A DNA stretch of 64,000 bases from a virus (Duplodnaviria; Heunggongvirae; Uroviricota; Caudoviricetes): IMG/VR virus record IMGVR_UViG_3300038393_000245, positions 12,289-76,288 of that record, one strand, 5' to 3'. Under the pieces are notes generated by a model, which had not been told where the DNA came from, did not search any database, and saw only the letters and a list, made by a program, of their open reading frames with translations. The translations under genes were made by a program, and so were the position numbers. Each line of letters opens with the position of its first letter. The stretch's first letter is position 1. Positions 9,390-31,071 of the stretch are shown piece by piece.

Positions 9390-9394
9390 TAAAT

Positions 9395-17023: not shown

Positions 17024-17024
17024 A

Positions 17025-17324
17025 TTATAGTTCATTCCTATTTTCGGATGAGGTATTATCACCAAATTTAATCGTCTTGAAGTCTCTTCCTTTTCCAAAG
17101 TAAGAATTGAAACTTACTCGAATGAATCGACGATCAGTTTCATTTGGATTGGGATTTGGAATCGTAATCCATCCATTCTTTCCAGACCTCCACGCGATCA
17201 GCTTATTATAGAGCTTATCTCCTTCAGAGACACCCTCTTTAACAATTCTAAGAGTCTTATTCGAAACAGAAGGACGCTGACCCTTAGAAGTTATTTTACT
17301 TCGTGTCCTAACCTTTTTACCCAT
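17025..17324 (-). CDS. basic hypothetical protein
   Basis: 99-aa ORF directly after a perfect promoter. Confidence 0.75.
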   Translation of the reverse strand: MGKKVRTRSKITSKGQRPSVSNKTLRIVKEGVSEGDKLYNKLIAWRSGKNGWITIPNPNPNETDRRFIRVSFNSYFGKGRDFKTIKFGDNTSSENRNEL

Positions 17325-17351
17325 TGCAAAACTCCAATATTTTATTCATAG

Positions 17352-17380
17352 ATTATATTCAAAAATAGAACAAATGTCAA
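17352..17380 (-). promoter_or_regulatory. consensus sigma70 promoter
   Basis: TTGACA-17-TATAAT. Confidence 0.8.
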
Positions 17381-17385
17381 CCATT

Positions 17386-18252
17386 TTAGGATTTTGTTCT
17401 TTTAGTCTTATTCAACATGTTAGAACTAGCAGTTGCAGGAGCTCCAATCTGAGCTAGATGAACTAGAGATCCTCCAAAGACGTATGACCCGACGTGTTGC
17501 ATCTTCATCCAAGGACAGATCATGATCTTTCCTCCCATTTTTTTAACATATTGACAGAACATATAATCTTCAGACAGATACCTCTTAGTATCTGGGTCTA
17601 TAACAGTATCAAAAAATGCGTGGATCTCTCTAGAACCATCGAATGCTTCGGTCCTTACATGGTCTGGTTTATACGACAGATTTGGATATTGTTTTTTGAA
17701 TTTTTCTAAGACTGGCCTATTCAACATCATGAACCCAGTCCCTATTTCTAGAACTTCTGCTGGCTCATGGATCTTTATTTGTTGAGATCCATTAACTGGA
17801 TTAAATACATAATCACCAACAAAGTTTTCAAGAACTTTGGGATCCTTGTCGGCAACTCCCTTATCTACCGCTAGTTTAATCTTCTCCCATGAAATACACT
17901 TCTTGGGATATGGTCCTCCAATTACATCATAATCTGGATTCTGAATCATAAGGGCGAGGAGGGCTATAACATCATGTGGATCGAATCCGATATCGGAATC
18001 AATGAACATAAGATGAGTGCAGTCACTTCTTAGAAATTCATCTGCACAATAGTTCCTCGCCCTAGTAATCAGGGATTCGTTGAACATGAAGTAGTATTGT
18101 AATGCTAACCCGTATTGGGTTGCTAAAGCTGAAAGATGAGCGATAGATTTACAAAACATTCCACAACAATTTCCTCCGTACATAGGAGTAGCAATCATTA
18201 TCTTATGTTTTCTTAAGACATCACTCTCAATATTAATCGAAATCCCTGACAC
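17386..18252 (-). CDS. GT-A fold glycosyltransferase-like protein
   Basis: IMIATPMYGG, ITRARN, FIDSDIGF (DxD), GTGFMM and LSEDYMFC. Confidence 0.75.
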   Translation of the reverse strand: MSGISINIESDVLRKHKIMIATPMYGGNCCGMFCKSIAHLSALATQYGLALQYYFMFNESLITRARNYCADEFLRSDCTHLMFIDSDIGFDPHDVIALLALMIQNPDYDVIGGPYPKKCISWEKIKLAVDKGVADKDPKVLENFVGDYVFNPVNGSQQIKIHEPAEVLEIGTGFMMLNRPVLEKFKKQYPNLSYKPDHVRTEAFDGSREIHAFFDTVIDPDTKRYLSEDYMFCQYVKKMGGKIMICPWMKMQHVGSYVFGGSLVHLAQIGAPATASSNMLNKTKRTKS

Positions 18253-18258
18253 GTATTA

Positions 18259-18858
18259 TTACTTCTTAGTCGCTCTTGCTCTGTCAGAATCGCTGAAAGT
18301 AGTTCTAAGTCCACTAGATGCGTACGCGCCCGTATTTATGGCCATAAACTTCATTTCATCTGCAAGATTATTGGTTGAGATATTGTATGATTTACTATAA
18401 TCAATACCAATCGATTTAGCCTGATCAACAACTCTATCGAAATTAGCTCCTAGGAATACAACCTCCCAGTTGCGATCTTCAGCTCGAGCTAGTTTCTCTC
18501 GGATTACCTCCTTAGTATACTTCTTAGAAGTATTTTCTTCTCCATCAGTCATCACAACGATGTACGCTTTTTCAGGAGATTCTTCAAAAGCTTTGTCTAG
18601 AAGACGAGCCATCGAATCTAGAAGAGGGGTTCCACCTCTTGGGCGAGCCTCTGACTCATTAAGATCCTTAAATCCTTTAGCCGTAGTATTTCGGAGTTCG
18701 AGATAACTCACGTCTCCATTATATCCACTGTCAAAAGCTGCTATATAAACGTTAGTATCTCCGTTTAGCTCTTTGACATACGCATTAAGTGCTCCGATAG
18801 TGTCGGACCACTGCGATCCCATAGAACCTGAACGGTCTAATAGTACATAAACACGCAT
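18259..18858 (-). CDS. von Willebrand factor A domain protein
   Basis: LLDRSGSM MIDAS, GGTPLLD and MTDGEEN. Confidence 0.88.
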   Translation of the reverse strand: MRVYVLLDRSGSMGSQWSDTIGALNAYVKELNGDTNVYIAAFDSGYNGDVSYLELRNTTAKGFKDLNESEARPRGGTPLLDSMARLLDKAFEESPEKAYIVVMTDGEENTSKKYTKEVIREKLARAEDRNWEVVFLGANFDRVVDQAKSIGIDYSKSYNISTNNLADEMKFMAINTGAYASSGLRTTFSDSDRARATKK

Positions 18859-18864
18859 TAATGT

Positions 18865-19164
18865 TTATTCCTTTTCTGTATTGAATGTGTCATGCACGTA
18901 TAACATCATTATCGCATAATGGCACACTTTAAGAAGATCCTTTCGGTTTCTTCCATCCTTCTTGCCGTATCGTTGAGCGTATTTAATGATGTTTCCAATA
19001 GTAAACCCTTCACCATGACCCGCGTCCATGATGAATTCTGTTGATTGGATTTTGCTTAGGCTGTAGTGCTGACCATACGTTGATGTGATATATGTCAGTA
19101 ATTCATTGAGGTACATGTCCTCATCAAATTTATACTGCACTTCTTTCGGGTTCACTTCTGTCAT
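18865..19164 (-). CDS. DUF3310-like protein
   Basis: HY...Q, GF.IGNIIKYAQRYGKKDG and DLLKVCHY. Confidence 0.75.
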   Translation of the reverse strand: MTEVNPKEVQYKFDEDMYLNELLTYITSTYGQHYSLSKIQSTEFIMDAGHGEGFTIGNIIKYAQRYGKKDGRNRKDLLKVCHYAIMMLYVHDTFNTEKE

Positions 19165-19185
19165 AGTAATCTTCTATTTATGATT

Positions 19186-20400
19186 TTATGCTAAAAAATC
19201 TACGATAGTCTTGGATTGTTTTTCTTCCCAGATCTCGTGAGACTGATGAGCATTTACTTGATACGTATAATTCGAATCTAGGTATGGTCGATTTCCAAGG
19301 AGAACTTCCTTTACTTCAACTGCCATATCCTTGGCAGTATTAACTGGAACGTTCTGACATATATGATTCGCAGATTTCTTCGGGTTAAGAAGTTCAAAGT
19401 CTTCAGGCATTCCCATAATTGAAAGAGCCTCTCGGTAGTTAATATACCGATCCTGATCTGGATGAGTTAGCATCGATGGATAATGTCCTACAAACGCTCC
19501 AATAAAATCCTTCGGAACAATGGTTCCTCGACGCATTACATTTCCTCCAGAAGCGAGCTTAGCATATTTGTACTTACACTTCTCAACTTCTTTATCATAA
19601 CCATGCTTAGACAACCAATCTCCTACTTGCTTATAATTGTATCCCTGTTGCTCTATGAACGAGAATACATCGTTAGATCGAACTTTTAGAAATTCCATCT
19701 TATCATGAGAGAATTGTCTATGAGTAAGACCACCGTACATTTCCTCTAAAATAAATCGATAATATGGATCATCTTTAGATGGAGTTTTGGGATTGATTGG
19801 TTCTTGCATCGAATTGCTTCTAGCATTTCTGATAACATCCTCAATCTTAGTCCATGGTCTGTTATAGTATCCTAGGAGAGGAGTCTTTGTTCCTTTCCAA
19901 AAGAAGTAAAATGTTCTCTCTCGAACTTGAGGAGTTCCATGGAGTAGTGATTTTGTTCGATATACGGTCATGGAATAACCGTTATCAAGACCTATCTTTC
20001 GGACTTGGTTACGAATATCTTCTCCAATTTTTCCAGCAAACCCAGGGGCGTTCTCACCTAAGAAAACAGTTGGTTTTAGTGTTCCTAGGACGTATTGGGC
20101 CGACTTTATCATCCATTGATTGTTTGGATTATTCGTTCCGAATCCATGGCTAAGCTGACTGAGACCGGCGCATGGACAAATAGATGTAACTACATCAACT
20201 TTAGGCAGTGGATTATGTGGTTTATCTACATAATGATACGGTAAATCAATATTTTTCTGGTTTCTATAATAGTGTAACAAATGCTGTTCATTAGATTGAA
20301 ACCCTTCATAAGTCATGAAGTATTCAGGTGGAGCATTGAATACTTCATGACTTGCTAGAGTCATACCACCTATGAGAGGAACAATTGACGCATGCTTCAC
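19186..20400 (-). CDS. DNA cytosine-C5 methyltransferase-like protein
   Basis: Catalytic CPCAGLS (motif IV), GENAP (VI), PQVRERTF (VIII) and QNVP (X); divergent motif I IVPLIGG. Confidence 0.75.
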   Translation of the reverse strand: MKHASIVPLIGGMTLASHEVFNAPPEYFMTYEGFQSNEQHLLHYYRNQKNIDLPYHYVDKPHNPLPKVDVVTSICPCAGLSQLSHGFGTNNPNNQWMIKSAQYVLGTLKPTVFLGENAPGFAGKIGEDIRNQVRKIGLDNGYSMTVYRTKSLLHGTPQVRERTFYFFWKGTKTPLLGYYNRPWTKIEDVIRNARSNSMQEPINPKTPSKDDPYYRFILEEMYGGLTHRQFSHDKMEFLKVRSNDVFSFIEQQGYNYKQVGDWLSKHGYDKEVEKCKYKYAKLASGGNVMRRGTIVPKDFIGAFVGHYPSMLTHPDQDRYINYREALSIMGMPEDFELLNPKKSANHICQNVPVNTAKDMAVEVKEVLLGNRPYLDSNYTYQVNAHQSHEIWEEKQSKTIVDFLA

Positions 20401-20446
20401 TTATGATACTTTCTTTTATGAATCTCTATATTTCCAGCATTGTAAA

Positions 20447-21595
20447 TTAAAAGAATGAGTCCAGTGATGCTGATGGAGGAGTTACAGGATGGGCCGGAAG
20501 ACCTTGTTTCTTAGGGTCTTTAATTTGAGTTGTATTATATTCTACACCGGTCCAATGTGGATATGACATCCGTGAAAGGTGAACGGACTTCTTATACTCC
20601 ATTGCGTGGAGATTTAGTTCACCATTCTTATTTAGAAGATATTCAGTCCAACGAATGAACTTTACTTTGCTCTGCGAGCCCTTGCAAAGTTGCTCAAGAT
20701 AATCATTGAACTCTTTGCGAGCTACCATACGCTCTTCCCATGAACCCCAGAATGGTTTCTTCATAAAGTAGCCAGACTGTGGAAGCTTACGAGCCTCTTC
20801 CTCACATGGAAGGAGTTCATAGATGCCGACTGACTTAAGATTAGGAAACTGATCGTATAGCGCATCTGCAGCGATCTTATATTCCATCGCAAGATTGATG
20901 GGATCTGGCCAGAGGTCAGTACCTTCTTTAACCTCTTTTCGACAGAAGTGGTGCCTTAGGTCGATGTTTCCAAAATAAATCTCTACATTCTCCACTTGTT
21001 CTGGAGAATCGTAAGCGTCCATTATGAATGAACTCAATCCTGTTCTAAGAGCTCCACGAAGCGTTTTATAAGGAACTGAATTAACCATCCATCCAGGGCG
21101 ATACATGCAAATGGAATGACTATCTCCAATAACGATATTAGGAGTGACATGAGGATACCTCAAAACTTGAGAGGACTCCATTCTCTTTAGATTGTCCCAG
21201 TCCACTTCGTCCCATGCTGGATCTGGTGTTCTTCCATTCCCTCGATCTTGAGCTAATTTTTCTTGGAGTTGTCGGTGATAATCTGGGAATGGAATAGCCA
21301 GAGAAATGACCTCTCCCTTAAACAATGTGAGATTTCTGAAGTTCCATGCATATGGAAACCCTTCGGTTCCTCCATAGAGATTCAGGCCTCCAGACCAATC
21401 ATTTCCATGATAGACGTAAACTTTATCAAAATCGTTAAAATCGTGAGTTACGTTTCCACCAAAGTTAACTACAACGTCATCTCCAGTGGACTCACGAATC
21501 ATATCAGCATAAATGACCCCTTGAGCCGCTCTGTGAGATGCCATGAAAGCAGCGATTGGGATGAATGGCGCTACGACGAGTGATCTAGCCATCAT
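20447..21595 (-). CDS. uncharacterised protein with SGNH/GDSL-like C-terminal motifs
   Basis: IGDSH, FGNIDLRHH and SVHLS resemble SGNH blocks I, III and V. Confidence 0.5.
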   Translation of the reverse strand: MMARSLVVAPFIPIAAFMASHRAAQGVIYADMIRESTGDDVVVNFGGNVTHDFNDFDKVYVYHGNDWSGGLNLYGGTEGFPYAWNFRNLTLFKGEVISLAIPFPDYHRQLQEKLAQDRGNGRTPDPAWDEVDWDNLKRMESSQVLRYPHVTPNIVIGDSHSICMYRPGWMVNSVPYKTLRGALRTGLSSFIMDAYDSPEQVENVEIYFGNIDLRHHFCRKEVKEGTDLWPDPINLAMEYKIAADALYDQFPNLKSVGIYELLPCEEEARKLPQSGYFMKKPFWGSWEERMVARKEFNDYLEQLCKGSQSKVKFIRWTEYLLNKNGELNLHAMEYKKSVHLSRMSYPHWTGVEYNTTQIKDPKKQGLPAHPVTPPSASLDSFF

Positions 21596-21756
21596 GCAAA
21601 CCTTTTATTGATGCCTTCAGTTCCGAAAAAATCATCTTGTTCAAGTTCGAGGATCAACTCTAAAAGACCACATTGAAGGAAGTCTTCAACATCATTTTCA
21701 TCGGCGTTTTTAAACCATTCTAGAACGTCGTTTGCATCTATCTCAGATTTAGCCAT
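21592..21756 (-). CDS. acidic hypothetical protein (54 aa)
   Basis: Manual translation MAKSEIDANDVLEWF...; coupled to its neighbours. Confidence 0.55.
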   Translation of the reverse strand: MAKSEIDANDVLEWFKNADENDVEDFLQCGLLELILELEQDDFFGTEGINKRFA

Positions 21757-22006
21757 TATCAACCTCTGTTGGATATTCAGTAATTATTGCTACTTTTGCT
21801 CCACACTTAATAACTGGATTCCCATCCTTAGTCGAGATTATTCGAGCAACTGTATTTCCATCCTTATCTTTGATAGATAGAGTATGAGCCCTTTTGGTTA
21901 CCTTTCCAGATGGAGTATCGCTAACTCTAATCGCAGGAGATGGATCAATCCATTTCCTTTTGTTATTGGAAGCTATAACATTTTTGCATACAGAGATGTA
22001 ATTCAT
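21749..22006 (-). CDS. hypothetical protein
   Basis: 85-aa ORF in operon. Confidence 0.65.
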   Translation of the reverse strand: MNYISVCKNVIASNNKRKWIDPSPAIRVSDTPSGKVTKRAHTLSIKDKDGNTVARIISTKDGNPVIKCGAKVAIITEYPTEVDNG

Positions 22007-23283
22007 GCTAAAAAATTCTCTAATGATGAAGAAGAGGATCCAACCTCTTTTGAAATAGGAGCACTAGCTCTAGCTGAGGCTGCAGCAGGATTTTCTGCTA
22101 ATCGACAGAAAACGTTAAACTGGCAACTAGCGATTTCGCATCCGAAAGTAGTAAATCTTCCAAGCTCAGTGGCTTCTGTATGGTACTTATAATCCAAGTC
22201 AGAAGAAATGTCAAGGAATTTATGTTGCATATCTCTGATTCTCAGGAGAAGATGCATTGCCGTCTTAGTATTGATTATAATATTCGGAAAGAGATTTCTA
22301 AGAGTAGCGGATGCACCCGGGCCAGCCATAACGTAAGGAGCATCCTCGTCAAGATTCCCATGCTCGACATTAAGAGCATCAAATTCTTTCTTATACTCAA
22401 CTTCGATGATAGACTTACTGCCGACTTCAGGCATTCGAGCCAGATTAGATGAAAAGTGATACCCGTAGTAAGGGCCAATCCCTCTAATCGACGTAAGATA
22501 TTCATAACTTCCCTGCATTGTTGGCTTTGTTTTATAAAACGCGGTCCATTCATCCGTCACACTCTTAATCCAAGCGATCATATCAGAAGTTCTCATCTTC
22601 CGATCTGGAGATATGGAATTAGGTGCTATTAATCGTCGTCCATTGAATTCAACACCACGAATATCAATAGGAGTAGGAACAGAACGTGCATAATTTCTTG
22701 CCGCAATTTGAAGTGAGGTTCTTAACTCTGTAGTTCCCCAAATTTGTTCTTTATGATGTGATGCGAGTTCAATATTTCGCATCAGAGTATACTCGTACTC
22801 TTTATCTTCTTTTAATCTTTCGAAGTCGATGAAGGGCTTGTCTGTCCGAACCAAGTACGGGAGATCGTTTGCCTGTCCGGTAATGATATCGAGTGTCCGT
22901 GAAGGACCATAGAACTTAACAATGGCCGAGTTGACCAGTCTATTTTCGAATGAGACATCTTGTCTGTAATATAAGTGCTGATTAAGCCAGATAATCTCGT
23001 CATGGAATGATCGATTGGGGTGAAAATACGGAACTGGTCTGTTGTTAACGACAAATCCTGTGCCAAATGATTCCTGGTGTTGATATCCCGTCTTAACGTA
23101 ATCTTCAAATGATTCATGTGTTTTTCCAATTCGAACACACCATTCTCTCTTATTAAATTCTCGAATAAATGATCCGTACTTTTTTCTAAAGTCGTGATCG
23201 CAATATTTCCATAACTCCTCACCCGATAGGTTTAGAGCTTGTTCCGTCGTCAATTGATCCATGCCAAACATTCTCTTTTTCAA
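22003..23283 (-). CDS. aGPT-PPlase-like (HhH glycosylase fold) DNA base-modifying transferase
   Basis: HhH-like SIRGIGPYYGYHF followed by AGPGA..TL and a C-terminal CEIASCQF, as in alpha-glutamyl/putrescinyl-thymine pyrophosphorylase families. Confidence 0.6.
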   Translation of the reverse strand: MKKRMFGMDQLTTEQALNLSGEELWKYCDHDFRKKYGSFIREFNKREWCVRIGKTHESFEDYVKTGYQHQESFGTGFVVNNRPVPYFHPNRSFHDEIIWLNQHLYYRQDVSFENRLVNSAIVKFYGPSRTLDIITGQANDLPYLVRTDKPFIDFERLKEDKEYEYTLMRNIELASHHKEQIWGTTELRTSLQIAARNYARSVPTPIDIRGVEFNGRRLIAPNSISPDRKMRTSDMIAWIKSVTDEWTAFYKTKPTMQGSYEYLTSIRGIGPYYGYHFSSNLARMPEVGSKSIIEVEYKKEFDALNVEHGNLDEDAPYVMAGPGASATLRNLFPNIIINTKTAMHLLLRIRDMQHKFLDISSDLDYKYHTEATELGRFTTFGCEIASCQFNVFCRLAENPAAASARASAPISKEVGSSSSSLENFLA

Positions 23284-23653
23284 CTAGGTCATGAACAATT
23301 CGTACGACCTTTACTCGAGGACACTCTTGTTCGATAATATTCGCTTGAACAGGGTCGTCCTCATAGTGGATTCCAATATCGACTCCGTGATCAAGGAGAT
23401 AATTGAGCTTAGAGGCTTTGTACTTTCCGGAACCTTCTCTAGTCTTGGTTTCAAACTTAACAGGGTTCATGTATACTCTAGAGTTTTGAATTCCATTATC
23501 TCTTAGCCATTTAATAGTATAATCGGCCTCATCAAAATAAGAACGACCTGTAATAATAACATCTTCGGGTCTTGGTCGTAACCCGATATATTTGCCCATA
23601 TTTATTACACCATCGATGTCATAGGAATTAATCACGCCAACTCCTATCCTCAT
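23219..23653 (-). CDS. HAD-like phosphatase
   Basis: YDIDGV (DxD), ITGR, K and HYEDD motifs I-IV. Confidence 0.7.
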   Translation of the reverse strand: MRIGVGVINSYDIDGVINMGKYIGLRPRPEDVIITGRSYFDEADYTIKWLRDNGIQNSRVYMNPVKFETKTREGSGKYKASKLNYLLDHGVDIGIHYEDDPVQANIIEQECPRVKVVRIVHDLVEKENVWHGSIDDGTSSKPIG

Positions 23654-24122
23654 CGACTCTAAATTGAAGCCATCTAATCATATCATCAATAGTCTCTACT
23701 AAAGGAATACCATGATACTCACACACGATATCAACATTTCCTTTCCTCCAATATCCAGGAGGACAGCAAACAACTATGTCTTTATTATGATGTAGACCTA
23801 ATTCGAGAAGAGTTATGGGAGCCTGACCATTTGGATCAAAGCAATATGTTATAACATCGGCTTTACTTTGAGCATCCAATTCCCACAAAACTTGTTCTTT
23901 GAATTGTGCATTATGAATACTCTGTTCCCAAGTCGAATCCCAATCTGTTCTCCTTGGATTATAGATATCAACTGGATATTCTTCAAGAGACCTTATGACT
24001 TGGGTCTGCCAATCAATAGCAGACCCCATGTCGATACTTCCACCAAGAAAGATAGAAGTATTAAGCCTCTCGTTCCTATCAATTTGTTGTGGAGCGAGAA
24101 ATACTCTTTGCATTATTTCCAA
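23628..24122 (-). CDS. nucleoside 2-deoxyribosyltransferase-like protein
   Basis: IFLGGSI..WQ, YNPRR.DWD, EQVLWEL and APITLLELGLH. Confidence 0.85.
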   Translation of the reverse strand: MEIMQRVFLAPQQIDRNERLNTSIFLGGSIDMGSAIDWQTQVIRSLEEYPVDIYNPRRTDWDSTWEQSIHNAQFKEQVLWELDAQSKADVITYCFDPNGQAPITLLELGLHHNKDIVVCCPPGYWRKGNVDIVCEYHGIPLVETIDDMIRWLQFRVDEDRSWRD

Positions 24123-25354
24123 GCCTCAAGTTTCTTTTCATAAGAAGTTGGCTGAGCTTTTGGAGTATTATCGATATCAGAAACAATCCTAATTGGAGTA
24201 GTCGGAAGATTATTTTGAGCTAGAGAATTGGTAATTCTACGAGTTGCCAAGGCTTCACACTCTCGATGAGCATCGTCGATCATCATCTGAGTTGGAGGAG
24301 TCTTCTGAGTAGCAGCCGAAGGACCGCGCAGGGAGCCAACCAATCCCATCTCGCGAGCAACTGTTACGTATCGGATAGCATCGATAACAACTCCAGCTGA
24401 GTTTGGAGAATCCTGAACAGATAGTCGTGCGTCAAAAATGAGGGGAGCCCCTCCGAAGCCCTTCGCTTCGATTCGGAAATGAGCGACCTTATTGTCACCA
24501 TGGTAAGCAATGTAAGATGATGGACCGGCGTAAATACCGTTCTTTGGGACTGGGATTCCTCGAATGTCATTCTGACTCCTGATTACGTTTTCTTTAGAAA
24601 TCTTCTTCGAAGCGAGACGGCTCTGGTCCATCATGTTAAGGAAGTCGGTATTTCCACCATGGTTGGTCTGCTCATGGAATTGGACAGTGCAACCACGGTT
24701 AAAGAAGAGCTCCTGCAGTGCTTGGCTCATGACTGATGCTCCAAGCTGTGACCGCATGTCATCTCCAATAGCAGGGATTCCAGCCTCTTTGATTCGTGTT
24801 TCCCACTTAGGATCGGAAACAATGAATACAGGAATGCAGTTTACAAATGGAACCTTGGCTTCAAGACATCCTTCAATATAGAATTCTGTAGCTTCCTGAG
24901 AACCGACAGGTAGATAGTTAAGAAGAACGTCTACTTCATTATCCTTAAGGTCTTTAACGAGTTGTTCATGGGTGAGTTGTTCAGATTCTTCATCGACTCG
25001 GAAAGCTTCATCCTCATCGAAATCTGACATGTGAGATGCGACTCCATCAAGAACTCGACCCATTTTCACTTTGACGATTCTAGCTCCAATGCTCATTAAT
25101 GCTGCGTTGGAAACATTAAAATCCATAGCACAATTTGGTCGAGAAAAGATTGCCTCTTGAAGAGGTTTACCAACTTTTCGGGAATCGACATCATATGCGA
25201 GAACAAACTCGATATGCTCTGCCTTATATCCACCGATGTCTGGAAATGCCAGACCATCTGTCTGACCTGTTTCTGAATAGAGAGCAACTCCCTCAATAAG
25301 GGACTTTGCACAGTTGCCGACGCCTACGACGGCGACACGAATTTTATTCTTCAT
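24113..25354 (-). CDS. ino1: myo-inositol-1-phosphate synthase (Ino1)
   Basis: VGVGNCAKSL, NYLPVGS, FVNCIP, IGDD..SQLGA, GGNTDFLNM, SKKISK, GDNK and DSPNSAGVVIDAIR. Confidence 0.95.
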   Translation of the reverse strand: MKNKIRVAVVGVGNCAKSLIEGVALYSETGQTDGLAFPDIGGYKAEHIEFVLAYDVDSRKVGKPLQEAIFSRPNCAMDFNVSNAALMSIGARIVKVKMGRVLDGVASHMSDFDEDEAFRVDEESEQLTHEQLVKDLKDNEVDVLLNYLPVGSQEATEFYIEGCLEAKVPFVNCIPVFIVSDPKWETRIKEAGIPAIGDDMRSQLGASVMSQALQELFFNRGCTVQFHEQTNHGGNTDFLNMMDQSRLASKKISKENVIRSQNDIRGIPVPKNGIYAGPSSYIAYHGDNKVAHFRIEAKGFGGAPLIFDARLSVQDSPNSAGVVIDAIRYVTVAREMGLVGSLRGPSAATQKTPPTQMMIDDAHRECEALATRRITNSLAQNNLPTTPIRIVSDIDNTPKAQPTSYEKKLEAWK

Positions 25355-25374
25355 TGATATCCTTTCATATCAGT

Positions 25375-25440
25375 TGGTGACCCGGTAGCGGCTATAGCCT
25401 TTTGGCCTCTATCGAGGGTAGCCGGGGAATACAATGTATT
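25375..25440 (-). promoter_or_regulatory. GC-rich structured leader upstream of ino1
   Basis: CCCGG...CCGGG, CTC-GATA-GAG, GCC-AAAA-GGC and palindrome GGCTATAGCC in an otherwise AT-rich intergenic region. Confidence 0.45.
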
Positions 25441-25445
25441 CGATT

Positions 25446-25453
25446 TATTTATA
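25446..25453 (-). promoter_or_regulatory. late promoter motif upstream of ino1
   Basis: Exact TATAAATA overlapping the upstream stop codon. Confidence 0.4.
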
Positions 25454-25877
25454 GTGAAAGATATTTTCGGCACTCATCGAGTTTTTGATTAATGAATCTA
25501 TCATCATTAATCTGTCTATTGAGTGGCGAAGGATGAGGTAGTTTGAAGTGGTGGATGCCGGCCTTCGTTAAAGCTTCAGCGGCAAAATTCCCTAAAGCAA
25601 CTACCTTAGTAAACTTATATAGGGCTTTCCTTAAATTGTCAAGGTTTACATCACTAATTTTGCATTTTCCTGGATAAGGATAAGCATTCATGAATGTAAA
25701 CGTATCTAAACCAAGCTTATCTATCCAATCATTTAATCTTGGAAACGTATTACCATTCTTTGCAGCTCTTGCAGATGGATTTTGTCCGACAAAAGCTACG
25801 ATGTTCGAGTCAGCCTCATTAATTAGTTCTACGTTCAGTAGTCCTTCAAGCGTCGAACCAATCTCAATCAATTTCAA
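25449..25877 (-). CDS. uracil-DNA glycosylase superfamily protein
   Basis: FVGQNPS, VVALG..A..AL and LPHPSPLN motifs. Confidence 0.7.
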   Translation of the reverse strand: MKLIEIGSTLEGLLNVELINEADSNIVAFVGQNPSARAAKNGNTFPRLNDWIDKLGLDTFTFMNAYPYPGKCKISDVNLDNLRKALYKFTKVVALGNFAAEALTKAGIHHFKLPHPSPLNRQINDDRFINQKLDECRKYLSL

Positions 25878-26322
25878 TATCCATCTCTACGACTTCAATC
25901 CCCGCTTCGGCAAAATATGATTTAGTCTTATTGACCGAATCAAGCCACCTATCATATAATCTCTCTGGTAAGACTGGAGCGACGACTCTAATGATTCCAG
26001 CCTGTATCATATGGACAGCGCATCTATCGCACGATAGGAATGGCCAAGTATAAAGGGTGCATTCCTTAACTGTAGTTGGTGAATTGATTACTGCATTCAT
26101 TTCGCAATGAACGATCATACTATATTTTGTTGGTCTGTCGTTCAATCTCTCTGAAGTATCATTAAGACGACTTGGAAATCCATTATATCCGACTGATACA
26201 ATATGCCGATTCTCATCAACAATTACCGCTCCAGTCTGAGTTGATGGATCTTTACTCCAAGTCGACACTTCTCGTGCTAGCCGGAGAAATCGGGTGTCCC
26301 ACTTCTTTTTCGTCATATGCAT
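25864..26322 (-). CDS. cd: dCMP deaminase
   Basis: WSKDPSTQTGAVIV, VGYNG, HCEMNA and SCDRCA. Confidence 0.92.
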   Translation of the reverse strand: MHMTKKKWDTRFLRLAREVSTWSKDPSTQTGAVIVDENRHIVSVGYNGFPSRLNDTSERLNDRPTKYSMIVHCEMNAVINSPTTVKECTLYTWPFLSCDRCAVHMIQAGIIRVVAPVLPERLYDRWLDSVNKTKSYFAEAGIEVVEMDIEID

Positions 26323-26542
26323 CCATTAAACTTCCAAATGCGCGTTCGAAGGCACTCATATCGTGAGTTCCATCATCAACGTCAAGATAAAATTGAAATC
26401 CTAGAAATATGATGGCAAAAGTTCTCCTCTTTGGATATATTTTGCTTGGTTTCTCATATTGAAATCTAGGAAACCATATCCAATAGAATGGATTAAGTCC
26501 GATTCTTATTGAAATTTCAGAGTTTTTAATATATTCAATCAT
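26252..26542 (-). CDS. hypothetical protein
   Basis: 96-aa ORF coupled to gp42. Confidence 0.6.
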   Translation of the reverse strand: MIEYIKNSEISIRIGLNPFYWIWFPRFQYEKPSKIYPKRRTFAIIFLGFQFYLDVDDGTHDMSAFERAFGSLMDAYDEKEVGHPISPASTRSVDLE

Positions 26543-27201
26543 TACTTAACCAAATTAAAATGTTTTTCGTATACGTGAAGCGATCCTACCTGCCAGTATA
26601 TGTTCCCCATTGGAATTCGTAGAGCATCAGATAAAAAGAATAGAACATGCCTCTGCCATGCTCGATCATTTTTGAATCCATATACGACGTCATTGCTTCT
26701 CATATTAACAATAGAGTGAACGTGATTATCTCTTACGACGTATTGAACGGTGTTAGTGCATATAAAGTCGCTCATTCCATCCGTGTTGTATTCAGTTTGG
26801 ATAGAAGGACGAGTATATATCATTATAGCTCTTCGAGATTCTGGATCCTTCTGAAGAGTCCTTAAACAATTAAGAAACTGGCTTCCATTTTCTTCAGACC
26901 AGATTAAGAATCCATAGTTTGAATTAATCCTTCCATCAGGAGTGGCGACTTGTTTCCAAATCTGAGGAACTGGAGGAGGAATGTCATTGACATTTAGAGA
27001 TCTTGATTCATACCATTGTATCTCTCGATTAACATAATCTTGGTTAACCGTTCCAAAAATAGAAGGTTCATCCGCGACAAAAGATGCTCCAACCATTTCA
27101 ATCATCTTGCAACCGGTCTTATCGGTCACAAAATTTTCATTATGGAGCTCATTTTTAAAATATTCTCGGATATCACTTACGTTTAATCTATTCATTATCA
27201 C
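26542..27201 (-). CDS. gp42: dCMP hydroxymethylase (T4 gp42 homologue)
   Basis: DKTG...GASFVADEP, INSNYG, SRRAIMIYTRPS, SDFICTNTVQY, MRSNDVVYGFKND and GSLHVY closely match T4 gp42; the dCMP-specifying Asp is kept. Confidence 0.93.
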   Translation of the reverse strand: MIMNRLNVSDIREYFKNELHNENFVTDKTGCKMIEMVGASFVADEPSIFGTVNQDYVNREIQWYESRSLNVNDIPPPVPQIWKQVATPDGRINSNYGFLIWSEENGSQFLNCLRTLQKDPESRRAIMIYTRPSIQTEYNTDGMSDFICTNTVQYVVRDNHVHSIVNMRSNDVVYGFKNDRAWQRHVLFFLSDALRIPMGNIYWQVGSLHVYEKHFNLVK

Positions 27202-27677
27202 TCCTGAGCCGCGACTGAATCCTTATGTTCCTCAAAATCTGAGTTAACTCGATCCATCACATCTCGAACGACTCCCTCGAGTGACTTGGGAGTCTTATTT
27301 TCTGTTAACAAAACCTGTTGAGCAGTTTCTTCTAAAGAAGGTAGATATCGATTCAACATATCCCTCTTCTCTTGTTGCCCTTCCATCTTACCTCGAATAT
27401 AAGATACAGCAAAACTTAGGTAATTGATTGCATCTTTGTAAGTATCTTCAAGACTCTCAAAATTCGGTTCCCTAATCTCTCCATTTTCCATAGGTTCGAG
27501 AAGAGACTGTGCTCGAAGAAGCTTTTGATGAACCATATCATGAATGGTCGAGACTCCTCGTCGATAATGCATCGCTTGACGAATATTAGAGTTAGGATTC
27601 TGATAATCAGCGCTCTTCTTAATCTGAAGATCAATACACTCCTGGAGAACTTTCACAGATTCACGCTGTGAAGACAT
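27198..27677 (-). CDS. Nmad1/DUF1599-like nucleotide-modification-associated protein
   Basis: LQIKKSADY, K.LRAQSL and ESLEDTYKDAINY; start moved to ATG 27677. Confidence 0.6.
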   Translation of the reverse strand: MSSQRESVKVLQECIDLQIKKSADYQNPNSNIRQAMHYRRGVSTIHDMVHQKLLRAQSLLEPMENGEIREPNFESLEDTYKDAINYLSFAVSYIRGKMEGQQEKRDMLNRYLPSLEETAQQVLLTENKTPKSLEGVVRDVMDRVNSDFEEHKDSVAAQE

Positions 27678-28137
27678 TTTTATATCCTTTATATTTTGAT
27701 GGAGATAGCTTCCACATAGTTGTAGAAGCATTTCTATCTTGTATTATACCAATTTTTACAAGATTTGTCAACCTATAAAATTGACAATATTCTCCATTAA
27801 AGTGTTCTCTGAAGTCATACCTCCTATTAGTTTCAGAATCCTTAATGGATTCATAAAACACAACTTCATTCTGAGGCATATCCGGAACTTCGATAAAGAT
27901 TAATCTATCTACGGATTCACACTTTTTCGATTGATTACACGGAAGACAGAATGAATTGTATTTGTATACAGGAAGGAGAGTCTTAACTTCAACCGTCTTG
28001 CCATTTACAATCATATCCTTCTCATCATCATATTTGTCTTCCGACATTATGACAATCTTACCTTGGCTTTGGAAGAATCTTCTAACGAGCCCTTCTCCAA
28101 CGGCTCCCAGTAATTCTTTACACTGAGATGGTGTCAT
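27661..28137 (-). CDS. putative PD-(D/E)xK nuclease
   Basis: GAVGE..V...D..KDMIV..VEVKT pattern. Confidence 0.5.
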   Translation of the reverse strand: MTPSQCKELLGAVGEGLVRRFFQSQGKIVIMSEDKYDDEKDMIVNGKTVEVKTLLPVYKYNSFCLPCNQSKKCESVDRLIFIEVPDMPQNEVVFYESIKDSETNRRYDFREHFNGEYCQFYRLTNLVKIGIIQDRNASTTMWKLSPSKYKGYKNVFTA

Positions 28138-28625
28138 TCAAATTCTGTGTGAAATAGAGTATAGTCTATTTGATCTAAAAGTCCATGGTTTCCTTCGTGA
28201 GAAGGTCCAACCCATCCCTCTGGTTTAATGAGATCAGGAAGACCTAGAGGATTCGGCCTCTCTGGCTTAATTCCTCTCTCTTTTGTCATATTTGCGTGAT
28301 GAACTCGATTCCACGCTTCTTGGGAATCAACATTATAGATATCGAGTGTTCCAATTGCCACGACACAGAGATCGATCATTGCGTCTACGATATCTTCGGC
28401 CGATGTCGCTGATTTAGCCTCGTCTAGTTCTTCTTGGAGAAATTTTAATCTGAATGATAGCATCTTCCTCAGTTTCTCAGAATCCATTTGAGCGGCCGAT
28501 TCATGAAAACCGTATTTGTCATGCATCTCATTATTATCAAGCCACCAAGGCTTGTCGTAATACAATTCTACTTCTTCAAGATTTAGAAAATTTTCATCTG
28601 ATGTCATATTATTCCTTAGATCCAA
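28134..28625 (-). CDS. MazG/PRA-PH-like NTP pyrophosphohydrolase (candidate dCTPase/dUTPase)
   Basis: LQEELDE...IVDAMIDL, W..VH.ANM.K and LIKPEGW. Confidence 0.8.
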   Translation of the reverse strand: MDLRNNMTSDENFLNLEEVELYYDKPWWLDNNEMHDKYGFHESAAQMDSEKLRKMLSFRLKFLQEELDEAKSATSAEDIVDAMIDLCVVAIGTLDIYNVDSQEAWNRVHHANMTKERGIKPERPNPLGLPDLIKPEGWVGPSHEGNHGLLDQIDYTLFHTEFE

Positions 28626-29134
28626 TCAGGAGGATCTCGATTAGTCCACTTATGTAAGTGGCGTTTAGCTTTTCTATAGTATTCTCGATAGTTATCGACG
28701 TACGAACTTATTTTATACTCATCCGGCATGCAGCACGGTGGAGTGGTCCAATCCCAATCAGTTAATCCAGATGGAGGAGATTGTAGATCATATAATAGTC
28801 TTCCAGTCTTATGCTTCTTTTTATATCGATGAGTATATTCTTGTAAGAGACCATCAAAGTGGTCCACAAGCCAGTTATGATTTGAGACGGATTTTCTAGC
28901 CCAAATAACCGATGGATGATTCTTATGAGTTATACGATAGAATTCTTCATTTCGATAATCAGGGAGGACTCCAGATTCATTTCCATCAATAATCCTATGA
29001 GTCGTTGATAAAATTTGAGCACTCTCCAGAATCATTTTTACTACGTGTTTATCACACTGCATTTTTGCTGATTCGTATGCATCATTTGATAAAAAGAAAA
29101 TGTTCACCTTGATCTTCTCTTCAACAACTTCCAA
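28616..29134 (-). CDS. pyrimidine-dimer DNA glycosylase (DenV family)
   Basis: NIFFL...DKHVVKMILESAQILST, THKNHP..IWAR and EYTHRY.K.H. Confidence 0.75.
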   Translation of the reverse strand: MEVVEEKIKVNIFFLSNDAYESAKMQCDKHVVKMILESAQILSTTHRIIDGNESGVLPDYRNEEFYRITHKNHPSVIWARKSVSNHNWLVDHFDGLLQEYTHRYKKKHKTGRLLYDLQSPPSGLTDWDWTTPPCCMPDEYKISSYVDNYREYYRKAKRHLHKWTNRDPPDWI

Positions 29135-29595
29135 TTCTTAAGAGCTTTTTCTCGATGGAACCTATTGGCTCTATCGATCATTCTTATTCCATCTAAGTGA
29201 TCTAACTCGTGTTGAAAGATTCTTGAACTCATTCCGGTAAACGTTTTAGTGTATGTCTCCCCGTCTGGACCTTCAAAGCGAACTTTAATAACTTTGGGCC
29301 TCTTAACTTTGATTGACATTCCAGGAAACGATAGGCAAGCTTCTTCTAGAACAACTAATTCTTCTCCAGGAATAACGATTCTCGGATTGAAGCACACATA
29401 GGCCGGCTCGCCCTCCATGGCGAAGACTCTATAATTTAATCCAACTTGATTAGCCGCCAACCCAATCCCATTGTTGTCTCTCATGAAATTAACCAATTCA
29501 ATGGCTAATTCTTCGGGATCAACATCTGAATTTTGAAAATCAAATGGAAGGCATTCGGAAGTTAGAATATTATCGTTGTATTCGACTAATTTCAT
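29104..29595 (-). CDS. def: peptide deformylase
   Basis: GIGLAANQVG, EACLS and HELDH motifs. Confidence 0.95.
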   Translation of the reverse strand: MKLVEYNDNILTSECLPFDFQNSDVDPEELAIELVNFMRDNNGIGLAANQVGLNYRVFAMEGEPAYVCFNPRIVIPGEELVVLEEACLSFPGMSIKVKRPKVIKVRFEGPDGETYTKTFTGMSSRIFQHELDHLDGIRMIDRANRFHREKALKNWKLLKRRSR

Positions 29596-29601
29596 TAATC
29601 A

Positions 29602-30066
29602 TTATATTCCGGTTTTTCGAGGAATAGTCCTACGGGTTCCATCGGGAGATATTTGAGTCACTGACCCATCTCGCCCATGTTCATAACTATAATGGATTGG
29701 TTCAAAAATGTCAAGGATAAAAGGCTTATTTTGTTTCCTTAAAATTTCAGACATGTGTTTAGCACCGGAAGAACTTCCATCCCACATGATGATTCCACCC
29801 TCGGCAAAATCACCCATCTCTTGATTCCTAATTGGACCAGCAGCTTTTCCATGAAGATCCCACTTTGCCGGAAACTTTGCTATCCCAATTCCATTTTCTC
29901 GAGCCCACATCTCTCCGAGTTTATCAGGACCTCTAGCTAATCCAGACACGACTAGCGTGATCTTCCCATAATCATTCTCAAATCTCTCTACAAGAGATTC
30001 TAGTTCTCTCATGTAATAAGAACACGTTTCTGAAAGTGTTCTAGAACCGGCGATTACTACCTTCAT
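29602..30066 (-). CDS. SLOG/YspA-like (DUF2493) protein
   Basis: VVIAGSR, SG.ARGPD.LG and AAGPIRN..M. Confidence 0.85.
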   Translation of the reverse strand: MKVVIAGSRTLSETCSYYMRELESLVERFENDYGKITLVVSGLARGPDKLGEMWARENGIGIAKFPAKWDLHGKAAGPIRNQEMGDFAEGGIIMWDGSSSGAKHMSEILRKQNKPFILDIFEPIHYSYEHGRDGSVTQISPDGTRRTIPRKTGI

Positions 30067-30409
30067 TTATTTTATCTCCCCACACATAAGCATCTTTTCG
30101 ATCTTCTAAAGCACATAGAAAATCATATTGTCTAGAATCCGCAAGTTCATACGCCGTATGATCAATATATACATCTCGTGGATCTCTAATTCCACGACAC
30201 TGGCTAGTCATGCTCTCTAGAGTAACAACACGAACTCTAGATGAATCCTCATTGTAATTATGGACCCTATTCTTTAATTCATTTCCTAAAAAATAAGTTC
30301 CAACGATAAGATATACTGGTTTATTATGCATGGACATCTCTTCGATCATTGTCAAAAGAAGTGTCGTAGTTCTTCCAGTCTGTCTTGGTCCAAACGCTAA
30401 CTCTCTCAT
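30041..30409 (-). CDS. hypothetical protein with P-loop-like N terminus
   Basis: GPRQTGRTT near the N terminus. Confidence 0.55.
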   Translation of the reverse strand: MRELAFGPRQTGRTTTLLLTMIEEMSMHNKPVYLIVGTYFLGNELKNRVHNYNEDSSRVRVVTLESMTSQCRGIRDPRDVYIDHTAYELADSRQYDFLCALEDRKDAYVWGDKINEGSNRRF

Positions 30410-31071
30410 TAATCAATCCATTGTTCTATGTTTGTACATGTTTCTGTTTTCCAAATTTCCAACTCCTCCTTACAGCGAGTCCAATGAAAACGAGTTATTT
30501 CATTCTTCTTATCATTGTTATGATAATCCCACACAAACCATGCGTAGGAAACCATTCCTCCAAGAGGATCAATTTCAAAATTCTTTTCTTGACAACTGAA
30601 TCTTCCTGCCATCATAAGAATATCTGTAGGAGGAGTTTTACTAAAGAATTCATATCTACCATCAGCCTCAACCCAAAGAAGTCGACATAACATCGCAGTA
30701 AATGGAACTGATAAATCTAAAGATTTTTGAGCGAACTCCTGAGGAAGCTTCTTCTCATACGGAGGGTTAGTGATAATAGCCTCAACGTCTCTTTTTACCG
30801 TGGGGTCTAGAAAATTAACACCCCATTCGATATCACATAGAGCATCCTCATATTGAAACAACTCAGTAGCAACCACACTGTGTCCATTTCGAATAAGCTC
30901 TTGAGCCATCCATCCTCGTCCAGAGGCTGGTTCCCAGACGGTTTTAGGAACATTGAATTTTCTGCACAGAGCATTTGTTACGAATGGAGGAGTTGGATAA
31001 TAGTCATTATCCTTTCTCTCCAGTGATTTATCTCGGCCTGAGCCGAGCAATCTCATGTGTTTATTGCTCAT
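30409..31071 (-). CDS. amino (N6-adenine/N4-cytosine) DNA methyltransferase
   Basis: DYYPTP, WEPASGRG (motif I) and ITNPPY (motif IV). Confidence 0.85.
   Translation of the reverse strand: MSNKHMRLLGSGRDKSLERKDNDYYPTPPFVTNALCRKFNVPKTVWEPASGRGWMAQELIRNGHSVVATELFQYEDALCDIEWGVNFLDPTVKRDVEAIITNPPYEKKLPQEFAQKSLDLSVPFTAMLCRLLWVEADGRYEFFSKTPPTDILMMAGRFSCQEKNFEIDPLGGMVSYAWFVWDYHNNDKKNEITRFHWTRCKEELEIWKTETCTNIEQWID

Follow-up and report, generated by a model that had tools for sequence, protein, structure and literature searches.

A putative pathway for cyclitol decoration of 5-hydroxymethylcytosine in an uncultured T4-like phage

Why would a T4-like phage carry an inositol phosphate synthase amid genes for making a modified cytosine? 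The window analysed here, 64,000 nucleotides in length, comes from the 173.6-kb record of a T4-like phage, estimated to be complete and with a T4-like backbone (gp43, gp45, gp44/62 and gp46). All 11 genes between positions 19186 and 28625 lie on the minus strand and mostly overlap or abut, as the initial annotation had described; its family calls were likewise upheld, at the Pfam, PHROG, motif or fold level. The gene cassette and the 5-hydroxymethylcytosine (hmC) enzyme beside it point to an undescribed, cyclitol-bearing DNA base. We consider it probable (roughly 0.6) that the block is a pathway decorating hmC in the phage DNA with a phage-made cyclitol, most likely myo-inositol. In the literature we found no paper describing a cassette of SGNH protein, Ino1, HAD phosphatase and transferase. 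The features are as follows:

16364-17098, minus strand: gp45 sliding clamp (PF09116, E 1.2e-13)
19186-20400, minus strand: divergent C5 cytosine methyltransferase-like enzyme (PF00145, E 2.5e-17)
20447-21595, minus strand: 382-aa two-domain protein, alpha/beta N-domain and SGNH hydrolase/acyltransferase domain (AF2 fold)
22003-23283, minus strand: predicted 426-aa HhH-fold aGPT-Pplase/HMUDK_hel-like DNA base transferase (fold, motifs)
23219-23653, minus strand: small capless HAD-type phosphatase (PHROG 415, E 4e-11; motifs)
23628-24122, minus strand: NDT-like (Nuc_deoxyri_tr2) protein (PF15891, E 1.5e-34)
24113-25354, minus strand: Ino1, myo-inositol-1-phosphate (inositol-3-phosphate) synthase (PF01658, E 1.3e-23)
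25446-25453, minus strand: T4-type late promoter TATAAATA, upstream of ino1 (identified by inspecting the sequence)
25449-25877, minus strand: UDG-superfamily protein (PF03167, E 3.2e-8, above the Pfam cut-off)
25864-26322, minus strand: dCMP deaminase (PF00383, E 7e-16, above cut-off; PHROG 174, E 6e-42)
26542-27201, minus strand: gp42-type dCMP hydroxymethylase, 5hm-dCMP synthase (T4 gp42, 1b5e, E 1.5e-82)
27198-27731, minus strand: Nmad1/DUF1599-like protein (PF07659, E 0.0039, below cut-off)
28134-28625, minus strand: MazG-type NTP pyrophosphohydrolase (PF01503, E 1.3e-7, above cut-off)

The transferase reading frame encodes 426 aa; the called gene has 419 aa, its start probably at 23262. 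Pfam support for the Nmad1-like protein is weak, and PHROG 18404 spans both it and the MazG gene.

Probable synthesis of hydroxymethylated cytosine

The gp42 homologue is about 55-60% identical to T-even gp42, with identical specificity residues. Residue criteria are available that separate hydroxymethylases from 5-hydroxy-dCMP synthases (PMC13326640). The catalytic Cys (DFICTN) and Asp169 (RSND) are both retained in the phage enzyme, which carries Asp at the positions of ThyA L143 and N177 (FKND). By these criteria its residues argue well for the 5-hydroxymethyl-dCMP synthase type, not the RB69-type 5-hydroxy-dCMP synthase, and the full hydroxymethylase signature, with the match to T4 dCMP hydroxymethylase, bears out the original gp42-like call. 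RB69 and DLP3, with arabinosylated 5-hydroxycytosine, are likewise T4-like, use a TS homologue to produce their modified dCMP and themselves encode the supply of the appended polyol or sugar, including a small HAD phosphatase (PMC13326640). Their TS homologues, however, have the D169N signature and yield 5-hydroxy-dCMP, whereas the phage here keeps the Asp, and transfer in RB69 and DLP3, unlike in the cassette here, relies on GT4-type glycosyltransferases with UDP-arabinose as donor (PMC13326640).

T4 gp56 was not matched anywhere in the genome. The MazG-type enzyme, whose gene adjoins gp42 in L006, L008 and L009 too, is a candidate dCTPase. The T-even hmC pathway (gp56, gp42, alpha- and beta-glucosyltransferases) thus shares with this phage a gp42 orthologue, the T4-like backbone and the hydroxymethyl as attachment point, but here a MazG-type enzyme takes the place of gp56 and the alpha- and beta-glucosyltransferases are absent. 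The group attached here would be a carbocyclic polyol, added by another enzyme class and probably joined by an ether bond, not a glycosidic one.

The initial statement that no alpha- or beta-glucosyltransferase is present holds for the T4 families across the whole genome, but other glycosyltransferases are encoded outside the block (a GT-A-like gene at 17386-18252 and a 338-aa GT-B). These enzymes, not the cassette, could modify hmC, which counts against the cyclitol reading. Pelagibacter podophages and cyanophages fall within their common phyletic pattern, which means that the two genes do not depend on the presence of gp42.

The predicted transferase and its conserved partners

The protein encoded at 22003-23283 had been called aGPT-PPlase-like. 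Its AF2 model (pLDDT 92) aligns by VIA with PaMx11 gp46 over 222 residues at Z 8.5, a middling value for a helical protein; other VIA matches were DUF2419 (Z 8.7), followed by about 18 HhH DNA glycosylases. The AFDB search returned proteins named '5-hmdU DNA kinase helical domain' (E 7e-13). The only Pfam match was HMUDK_hel (E 5e-5, under cut-off), with none to ADDT (PF18724), and hhalign against gp46 was not significant (probability 0.2%). The motifs GTTELRTS, GxGxYYGYH and E376-x3-C380-Q are kept down to 23% identity. PaMx11 gp46 is a 5-PmdU glycinyltransferase, an aGPT-Pplase, with residues W146, K150, E243 and C247 (PMC11472151), to which the invariant Y265, H269, E376 and C380 correspond; the Glu-x3-Cys spacing is the same, and the Trp146 position is aromatic. 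For clade 2 aGPT-Pplases, thiolate attack on C6 has been proposed (PMC8989533). The predicted fold and the active-site motif thus support the aGPT-Pplase-like call.

Homologues of this protein were found in 80 IMG/VR viral loci, a count that includes related phages and hence events that are not independent. Ino1 and the SGNH protein are each present in 76 of these loci, and in 74 a HAD homologue lies no more than about 2 kb from Ino1. Ino1 is missing from four loci, one in an Aeromonas-type phage and three that end just upstream. The association persists at identities as low as 23% and in jumbo phages that are not T4-like, and the cassette genes are interleaved in a second lineage, jumbo phages with a DnaE polymerase. 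Six more distant genomes were checked for a dCMP-hydroxymethylase-type TS, namely four jumbo records that carry a cassette homologue plus Aeromonas phages 31 and AS4, and each of them has one; in a fifth jumbo record, with a completeness of only 34%, none was seen. Co-occurrence of ino1 with gp42 and aGPT-PPlase genes, proposed at the outset as a check, is therefore strong. The linkage of Ino1 is far from chance, and the conserved unit is the SGNH protein, Ino1, HAD and the HhH transferase.

Other genes of the block are less constant. The NDT-like gene, first taken as a pathway member, occurs in only 3/80 loci, and the close relative L006 has anti-Thoeris Tad3 (PF25185, E 5.7e-39) in the same slot; it is probably a variable insert outside the pathway. 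For the C5 methyltransferase the family call stands, with motifs IV (CPCAGLS), VI (GENAPG) and VIII (QVRER) kept and VPLIGG as motif I, but core membership does not, the gene being accessory (19/80 loci, including the DnaE-type jumbo lineage). Such an enzyme is hard to reconcile with complete replacement of C by hmC, which counts against the cyclitol reading. Between HAD and transferase, 60/80 loci have an FkbM-type methyltransferase, which in P0064 forms a fusion with the transferase. Annotations of FkbM proteins mostly describe O-methylation of sugar hydroxyls, and this putative tailoring enzyme was counted as support for a cyclitol.

The SGNH protein has no Pfam match. In its AF2 model (pLDDT 90.8), residues ~151-349 adopt an SGNH fold (Foldseek E 1e-6; VIA Z 13.1), which, with invariant GDSH, GNID and His339, confirms the earlier SGNH-like call. 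It ends in a clamp-type tail, SLDSFF, which conforms to a pattern found in 42/45 homologues and resembles the tails of the polymerase (571-3108; ATLDDWF), the transferase (C-terminal SLENFLA) and the C5 methyltransferase (IVDFLA). Complex prediction of gp45 with the SGNH protein tail gave weak support (0.54 versus 0.00 for the best control) for the proposal that gp45 may tether the tailed cassette enzymes.

In Aeromonas phages 31 and 44RR2.8t the SGNH protein is fused to the HhH protein (ORF233c, PHROG 17781; uncharacterised; 33% and 59% identity). These phages have a gp42-type enzyme but neither Ino1 nor HAD; an SGLT-type sodium:solute symporter adjoins the fusion gene, consistent with a substrate that is imported as a free polyol or sugar. 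Since the transporter replaces Ino1 and HAD jointly, the phosphatase is suggested to act before transfer.

Proposed pathway and alternatives

In the proposed pathway, the MazG-type enzyme would convert dCTP back to dCMP, and 5hm-dCMP made by the gp42 homologue, a step well supported by residues, would be phosphorylated and polymerised into DNA. Ino1 would convert glucose-6-phosphate to inositol phosphate, from which HAD would free myo-inositol, as their family and pairing suggest. On DNA, the HhH enzyme, probably tethered to gp45 via its C-terminal tail, would flip out the modified base. Cys380 would attack C6, a step already suggested for aGPT-Pplase2 enzymes; the 5-methylene would then lose its substituent and a cyclitol hydroxyl would add, giving ether-linked 5-(inosityloxymethyl)cytosine. 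The tailed SGNH-domain protein may also act at the DNA level, either by tailoring the cyclitol or, to make up for the missing DNA kinase, by giving hmC an acyl leaving group, and the C5 methyltransferase-like enzyme would be accessory. We infer the chemistry of the base, namely inositol as the attached group, the linkage and the hydroxymethyl activation. Neither a P-loop DNA kinase nor any other activator that uses ATP is encoded in the cassette, which leaves the energetics of hydroxyl replacement unexplained. Of the pathway as first drawn, the gp42 type, Ino1 with its phosphatase, the aGPT-Pplase-like enzyme and the co-occurrence stand; NDT and C5 methyltransferase as core members do not, and the absence of glycosyltransferases is limited to the T4 alpha and beta families.

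Thymidine hypermodification by 5-HMUDK with aGPT-Pplase2 or amino-acid:DNA transferase (M6, ViI, PaMx11, PhiW-14) likewise starts from a TS-family enzyme that makes a 5-hydroxymethyl pyrimidine nucleotide and uses a post-replicative helical enzyme of HhH-like type, whose active-site Cys is preceded by a Glu at a distance of four residues; a free small-molecule nucleophile replaces the group on the 5-methylene, and in ViI serine is joined via its oxygen, a precedent for an ether link (PMC5889632, PMC8989533, PMC11472151). Here, in contrast, the base is cytosine rather than uracil, the P-loop DNA kinase is absent and the transferase lacks an ADDT match. The nucleophile is likely a cyclitol from dedicated Ino1 and phosphatase instead of an amino acid or polyamine, and the constant partner is an SGNH-fold protein.

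The role of HAD bears on the order of events. Motif I (DIDGV) is visible by eye, ITGR and EDD are present as well, and a Pfam search gave no match. The Ino1-HAD pairing extends to the cultured phages Moby, Cr30 and RP13, and L009 and its close kin lack HAD. The protein could instead be a nucleotidase, which counts against the cyclitol reading. Alternatively, the same cassette would act on the same base with a cyclitol that is nucleotide-activated or attached through phosphate (giving phospho-inositol on hmC via NDP-inositol or inositol phosphate), HAD removing the terminal phosphate after transfer by analogy with sucrose-6-P, trehalose-6-P or mycothiol logic. This would provide the missing driving force and agrees with the absence of HAD from L009, where an NTP_transferase (28 bits, above cut-off) adjoins Ino1, with a cytidylyltransferase-like gene in L105, and with the small capless type of the HAD; small capless HADs often have large substrates. 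We nevertheless judge it unlikely, as the Aeromonas transporter substitutes for Ino1 and HAD together, an aGPT-Pplase-type Cys mechanism displaces a leaving group of the base and not of a donor, and the NTP_transferase is limited to one sub-lineage.

A free cyclitol, the preferred reading, need not be myo-inositol. The phage Ino1 falls short of the NCBIfam Ino1 equivalog TIGR03450 (302 bits, cut-off 638), so its product could differ; viral Ino1 proteins form a separate PHROG, and Ari2 (6k96, E 3e-50) is the second-best solved relative. That it makes another carbocycle, such as a five-membered cyclitol phosphate like Ari2, or uses another sugar phosphate, is nonetheless quite improbable: M. tuberculosis Ino1 (1gr0) is much closer (E 1.5e-77), GVGNCA, GGNxDFLNM, SKKISK and DSPNSAG are present in MIPS-like form, and Ari2's two-residue deletion is missing. 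With PF01658, these features uphold the Ino1 call: the enzyme appears to be a genuine inositol-phosphate synthase, and a phosphatase accompanies it.

The Ino1-phosphatase pair also forms part of four further types of DNA-modification cluster in phages: with a PF18724 AADT (E 1e-52) in Cr30, with an HMUD2 kinase in RP13, as FolE-Ino1-HAD-QueC-DpdA-QueE in Menderavirus, and as kinase-AADT-GT4-HAD-Ino1-TET/JBP in L105. That the pair is auxiliary metabolism unrelated to DNA (inositol for host physiology, or a glucose-6-phosphate drain), with hmC plain or glycosylated by other phage enzymes and the HhH and SGNH proteins in another DNA role, might be suggested by the variable gene 45-46 interval, which gathers accessory genes, by Tad3 within the relative's cassette and by the two extra glycosyltransferases, but has little probability given these clusters, the Ino1-HhH linkage across lineages and gene orders, and glycosyltransferases not tied to gp42.

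The late promoter TATAAATA upstream of ino1 was counted, as evidence on timing, in favour of the cyclitol pathway.

A conserved cassette between genes 45 and 46 of a T4-like genome

The window belongs to one IMG/VR virus record of 173,592 bp, complete according to CheckV. The genome has a T4-like backbone, with a family-B polymerase (571-3108) and a gp45 clamp (16364-17098); its clamp-loader, RegA and gp46/47 genes stand in the same order in close relatives. Between the gp45 and gp46 genes lies a block of co-oriented and mostly overlapping minus-strand genes:

19186-20400, minus strand: C5 methyltransferase
20447-21595, minus strand: SGNH protein, 382 aa, with the SGNH fold in residues ~151-349
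22003-23283, minus strand: transferase, 426 aa, all-helical
23219-23653, minus strand: small HAD-type protein
23628-24122, minus strand: NDT-like protein (PF15891), between ino1 and the HAD gene
24113-25354, minus strand: Ino1
26542-27201, minus strand: gp42 homologue
Further members, minus strand: UDG-like protein, dCMP deaminase, weak Nmad1 match, MazG-type pyrophosphohydrolase

The initial annotation had read this block as a pathway attaching inositol to hydroxymethylcytosine, and each gene family it named is borne out by Pfam, PHROG, PDB-sequence and fold searches. Compared by megablast with GenBank phages, the block gave zero matches. A T4-type late promoter (TATAAATA, 25453-25446) is present upstream of ino1, and a perfect sigma-70-type promoter (27771-27743) upstream of the Nmad1/gp42 genes. 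The stretch from the late promoter to the ino1 ribosome-binding site (25375-25445) holds a GC-rich segment of ~55 nt with the palindrome GGCTATAGCC and TCACCA at its end.

IMG/VR was scanned with an alignment of the transferase family, and the 80 loci returned were searched for the proteins of the window. In these counts, which take in related phages and do not record independent events, Ino1 and the SGNH protein each occur in 76 of the 80 loci, the HAD protein in 74, an FkbM-type methyltransferase in 60, a gp42-type thymidylate synthase (TS) within 10 kb in 23, the C5 methyltransferase in 19 and the NDT-like protein in 3. The proposed association of ino1 with an aGPT-Pplase-like gene thus holds in nearly every locus; of the four lacking Ino1, one is an Aeromonas 44RR-type phage and three are truncated immediately upstream of the matching sequence. 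The genes usually run SGNH protein, Ino1, HAD, (FkbM methyltransferase), transferase. T4-like contigs and DnaE-polymerase jumbo contigs both carry the cassette, which is strongly conserved over two gene orders, two types of replisome and identities of 23-78%. That it forms a conserved unit is well supported; the chemistry discussed below is what we infer from it. Cluster representatives found in database searches number 135 for the transferase and 652 for the SGNH protein.

Four of five jumbo records carry a canonical ThyA together with a divergent TS of 290 to 324 aa bearing dCMP-hydroxymethylase residues; no TS was found in the fifth, which is 34% complete. The jumbo locus L010 likewise carries a dCMP-hydroxymethylase-type TS. 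In its DnaE-type lineage the transferase (L010, 9001-10518) ends in an extra domain of ~100 aa that replaces the clamp-type tail described below. An NTP_transferase encoded in another locus, L009, was not found in the other 80 loci.

Proposed target base and cyclitol supply, and accessory genes

The gp42 homologue matches PF00303 (E 6.7e-16), has the TS fold and aligns over its whole length with T4 dCMP hydroxymethylase (PDB 1b5e, E 1.5e-82), its DFICTN and GFKND aligning with DFMCTN and GFRND of T4. The catalytic Cys148 is kept, the acidic residue is an Asp at the ThyA Leu143 position, and Asp179 occupies the position of ThyA Asn177. The latter change (N177 to D) specifies dCMP and rules out a dUMP hydroxymethylase feeding a thymidine pathway. 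Another alternative is a 5-hydroxy-dCMP synthase, the activity of the TS homologues of RB69 and DLP3, which is marked by Asn at ThyA position 169 (2026 paper, PMC13326640). Because that position keeps Asp here (RSND), the RB69-type activity is ruled out, and the enzyme is of the hydroxymethylase type, predicted to form 5hm-dCMP out of dCMP and methylene-THF. The adjoining MazG gene forms with gp42 a pair that is conserved in relatives. As tblastn found no orthologue of T4 gp56 in the genome, we infer only that the MazG-type enzyme is likely a dCTPase. The genome probably replaces C.

Ino1 matches PF01658 (E 1.3e-23) and M. tuberculosis Ino1 (1gr0, E 1.5e-77). The alignment with 1gr0 contains the NAD motif GxGxxA, the SKKISK Lys pair, GGNxDF, DSPNSAG and the C-terminal Lys; the lysines are catalytic in MIPS (PMC11348189). 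The conserved blocks have the MIPS form, and the protein is far nearer M. tuberculosis Ino1 than Ari2, a synthase of a five-membered cyclitol phosphate. On the NCBIfam equivalog TIGR03450 it scores 302 bits, under the cut-off of 638, so its product may be a cyclitol other than myo-inositol. The HAD-type protein has DIDGV, ITGR and EDD motifs seen by eye and matches PHROG 415 (E 4e-11); Pfam, NCBIfam and PDB sequences gave no match to it.

Two neighbors call for separate treatment. Membership of the NDT-like gene in the pathway is rejected because of its distribution across the transferase loci. In the close relative L006 its variable slot (9086-9484) holds the type I Thoeris inhibitor Tad3 (PF25185, E 5.7e-39), which argues that the gene is an insert. 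The NDT-like protein, too, may serve in anti-defence, as an enzyme destroying a nucleotide signal. The C5 methyltransferase has motifs IV (CPCAGLS), VI (GENAPG) and VIII (QVRER), and its motif I is VPLIGG, not FxGxG, in all five lineage representatives. The idea that this enzyme no longer binds SAM and is the actual transferase is unsupported: despite the unusual motif I, it has a motif II-like NE.

Proposed group transfer, activation and clamp tethering

The model of the 426-aa transferase is confident (pLDDT 92). Foldseek found nothing in the PDB at E <= 0.001, and the tentative fold assignment came solely from an exhaustive VIA search and from AlphaFold-DB. The top three in the VIA search are two DUF2419 queuine-salvage proteins (Z 8.7 and 8.4) and gp46 of phage PaMx11 (Z 8.5, rmsd 4.5, 222 residues aligned), followed by ~18 helix-hairpin-helix (HhH) DNA glycosylases (Z 4-7). 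The AlphaFold-DB matches are proteins named for the 5-hmdU DNA kinase helical domain (HMUDK_hel; E 7e-13), which is also the only Pfam match (E 5e-5, 23.2 bits, under the cut-off of 25). The protein is not a member of Pfam ADDT, PF18724 giving no match at E <= 0.01. The family profile had no match among PDB sequences at E <= 10, and hhalign of the family against PaMx11 gp46 was not significant (probability 0.2%).

PaMx11 gp46, which is distinct from the T4-like gene of that name, is a 5-phosphomethyl-dU glycinyltransferase. Its Trp146 and Cys247 clamp the flipped base, Glu243 keeps the metal at O4 in place and Lys150 binds the glycine (PMC11472151). It belongs to the aGPT-Pplase2 clade, whose members were proposed by Lee et al. 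to attack C6 with a thiolate (PMC8989533). The transferase family has two invariant elements, a GxGxYYGYH loop (GPYYGYH) and Glu376-x3-Cys380-Gln, both kept down to 23% identity. Its Glu-Cys spacing and distance to the C terminus equal those of PaMx11 gp46, a correspondence drawn from motif spacing and co-linear superposition, not from a residue-level structural alignment. Because of these shared motifs and spacing, and of the proposed thiolate attack on C6, the transferase probably works like an aGPT-Pplase. The initial reading of an aGPT-Pplase-like protein is supported by the active-site Cys, the Glu four residues upstream and the aromatic residue of the GPW-type loop, and not by the PF18724 profile or hhalign. 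One homologue of 720 aa (P0064) is fused to an FkbM methyltransferase domain.

The SGNH fold of the 382-aa protein is clear (Foldseek probability 1.0, VIA Z 13.1), with the invariant residues G157-D158-S159-H160 (block I), G209-N210-D212 (block III) and H339 (block V). The protein has no Pfam match; its N-terminal domain (residues 1-150) has none at E <= 1 and matches no Atlas feature. Pfam and PHROG matches of the ORFs in 16364-31071 (the 99-aa ORF at 17025-17324 being compared with PHROGs alone) include no kinase family, such as a P-loop 5-hydroxymethylpyrimidine DNA kinase. As the cassette has no kinase, the SGNH protein was considered as the activator. It is the only candidate for activating the hydroxymethyl group, for example by acyl transfer; equally, it could tailor the cyclitol.

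The SGNH protein and the transferase both end in a short motif resembling the C terminus of the polymerase (ATLDDWF). Among the genome's 555 ORFs with 60 aa or more, only three have an L-[DENS]-x-F tail: the SGNH protein (SLDSFF), the transferase (SLENFLA) and a probably spurious ORF of 60 aa. The SGNH-protein tail is kept in 42 of 45 homologues, and the C5 methyltransferase ends in IVDFLA. Complex prediction for gp45 with the SGNH tail gave 0.54 against 0.00 for the best control, with a partner pLDDT of 42-45 and at least 49% of contacts shared between runs. Clamp-peptide complexes have already been solved, and the prediction may reflect those structures. Because of this, and because the prediction gives weak support, tethering of the tailed enzymes to the clamp can only be suggested. 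The more distant members P0078-P0120 of the family alignment (~390 aa) have tails such as QLSLF, QISLF and LKLF, like the bacterial beta-clamp-binding motif and unlike the SLExFF of the T4-like group.

The proposed modification and its relatives

A far-reaching and tentative reading, to which we give a probability of roughly 0.3, is as follows. Many uncultured T4-like and jumbo phages would carry a carbocyclic polyol (myo-inositol, often O-methylated) ether-linked to 5-hydroxymethylcytosine, installed independently of a kinase by a clamp-tethered pair, an SGNH acyl-transfer activator and a Cys-dependent HhH transferase; inositol would be a general hypermodification block, used also on hmU and in 7-deazaguanine and TET-based clusters. 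A full-text search of the literature on inositol or cyclitol plus phage DNA modification found no description. If the reading is true, cyclitols are a new chemical class among the groups that viruses attach to DNA, aGPT-Pplase-type group transfer extends from thymine to cytosine, and hydroxymethylpyrimidines can be activated without a DNA kinase. Environmental viromes commonly contain the cassette, so the modification could alter the restriction, CRISPR and sequencing behavior of many uncultured phages. The enzymes could become tools for site-directed derivatization of 5hmC.

Among GenBank phages, a transferase homologue is found only in Aeromonas phages, for example 31 and 44RR2.8t. There the SGNH protein and the transferase form a single polypeptide of 795 aa, whose gene adjoins a sodium:solute symporter of the SGLT/YidK type; a gp42-type enzyme is present, and Ino1 and HAD are absent. 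As the symporter stands for Ino1 and HAD at once, the arrangement fits a substrate imported as free polyol or sugar, with the phosphatase of the cassette acting before transfer.

Ino1 itself occurs in three groups of GenBank phages, always with an adjoining HAD homologue and always among DNA-modification genes. The Stenotrophomonas Menderavirus cluster reads FolE-Ino1-HAD-QueC-DpdA-QueE. Ralstonia RP13 has a 5-hmdU DNA kinase 2 gene and a dUMP-hydroxymethylase-like TS. Caulobacter phage Cr30 (L002, 5904-8872) has a PF18724 amino-acid:DNA transferase (E 1e-52) and a weak match to a TET-associated glycosyltransferase; these two and a PF18909 dATP/dGTP diphosphohydrolase lie directly upstream of ino1, and canonical ThyA is the only TS found in that genome. 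The viral contig L105 combines kinase, AADT, cytidylyltransferase/cupin, GT4, a non-homologous HAD, Ino1 and TET/JBP.

The initial annotation had recognized no alpha- or beta-glucosyltransferase. This stands for the T4 families (PF11440, PF09198), neither of which matches anything in the 173.6-kb record at E <= 1; other glycosyltransferases are, however, encoded:

17386-18252: GT-A-like protein, 288 aa, Atlas structure with TM 0.84 to viral GT2 proteins
Outside the window, within genome 147921-151292 (locus L129): GT-B protein, 338 aa, between the genes for a 5'-3' exonuclease (RNase H-like) and S-adenosylmethionine decarboxylase
Adjoining a collagen-like fibre gene: three-domain glycosyltransferase

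The GT-A-like and GT-B genes share a distribution that takes in cyanophages or Pelagibacter podophages. They therefore do not track gp42, and they were set aside as hmC glycosyltransferases. The AdoMet decarboxylase gene beside the GT-B gene hints at polyamine metabolism. The GT-A-like gene is the first of three (17386-19164) whose conservation alongside the cassette extends to L006 and L008, the T4-like genomes closest to this one; in L009 it alone is detectable. The second encodes a protein with a VWA domain and the third a DUF3310-like protein of 99 aa, which PHROG links to nucleotide-kinase fusions. Amid minus-strand genes, a plus-strand island (55429-60521) encodes an FkbM methyltransferase, a 2OG-Fe(II) oxygenase and a protein of 866 aa whose domains are GT1, GT2 and Anp1-like. 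The island borders on a fibre gene that has collagen repeats and a Peptidase_S74 chaperone domain, and it resembles a gene set for the hydroxylation and glycosylation of a collagen-like tail fibre.
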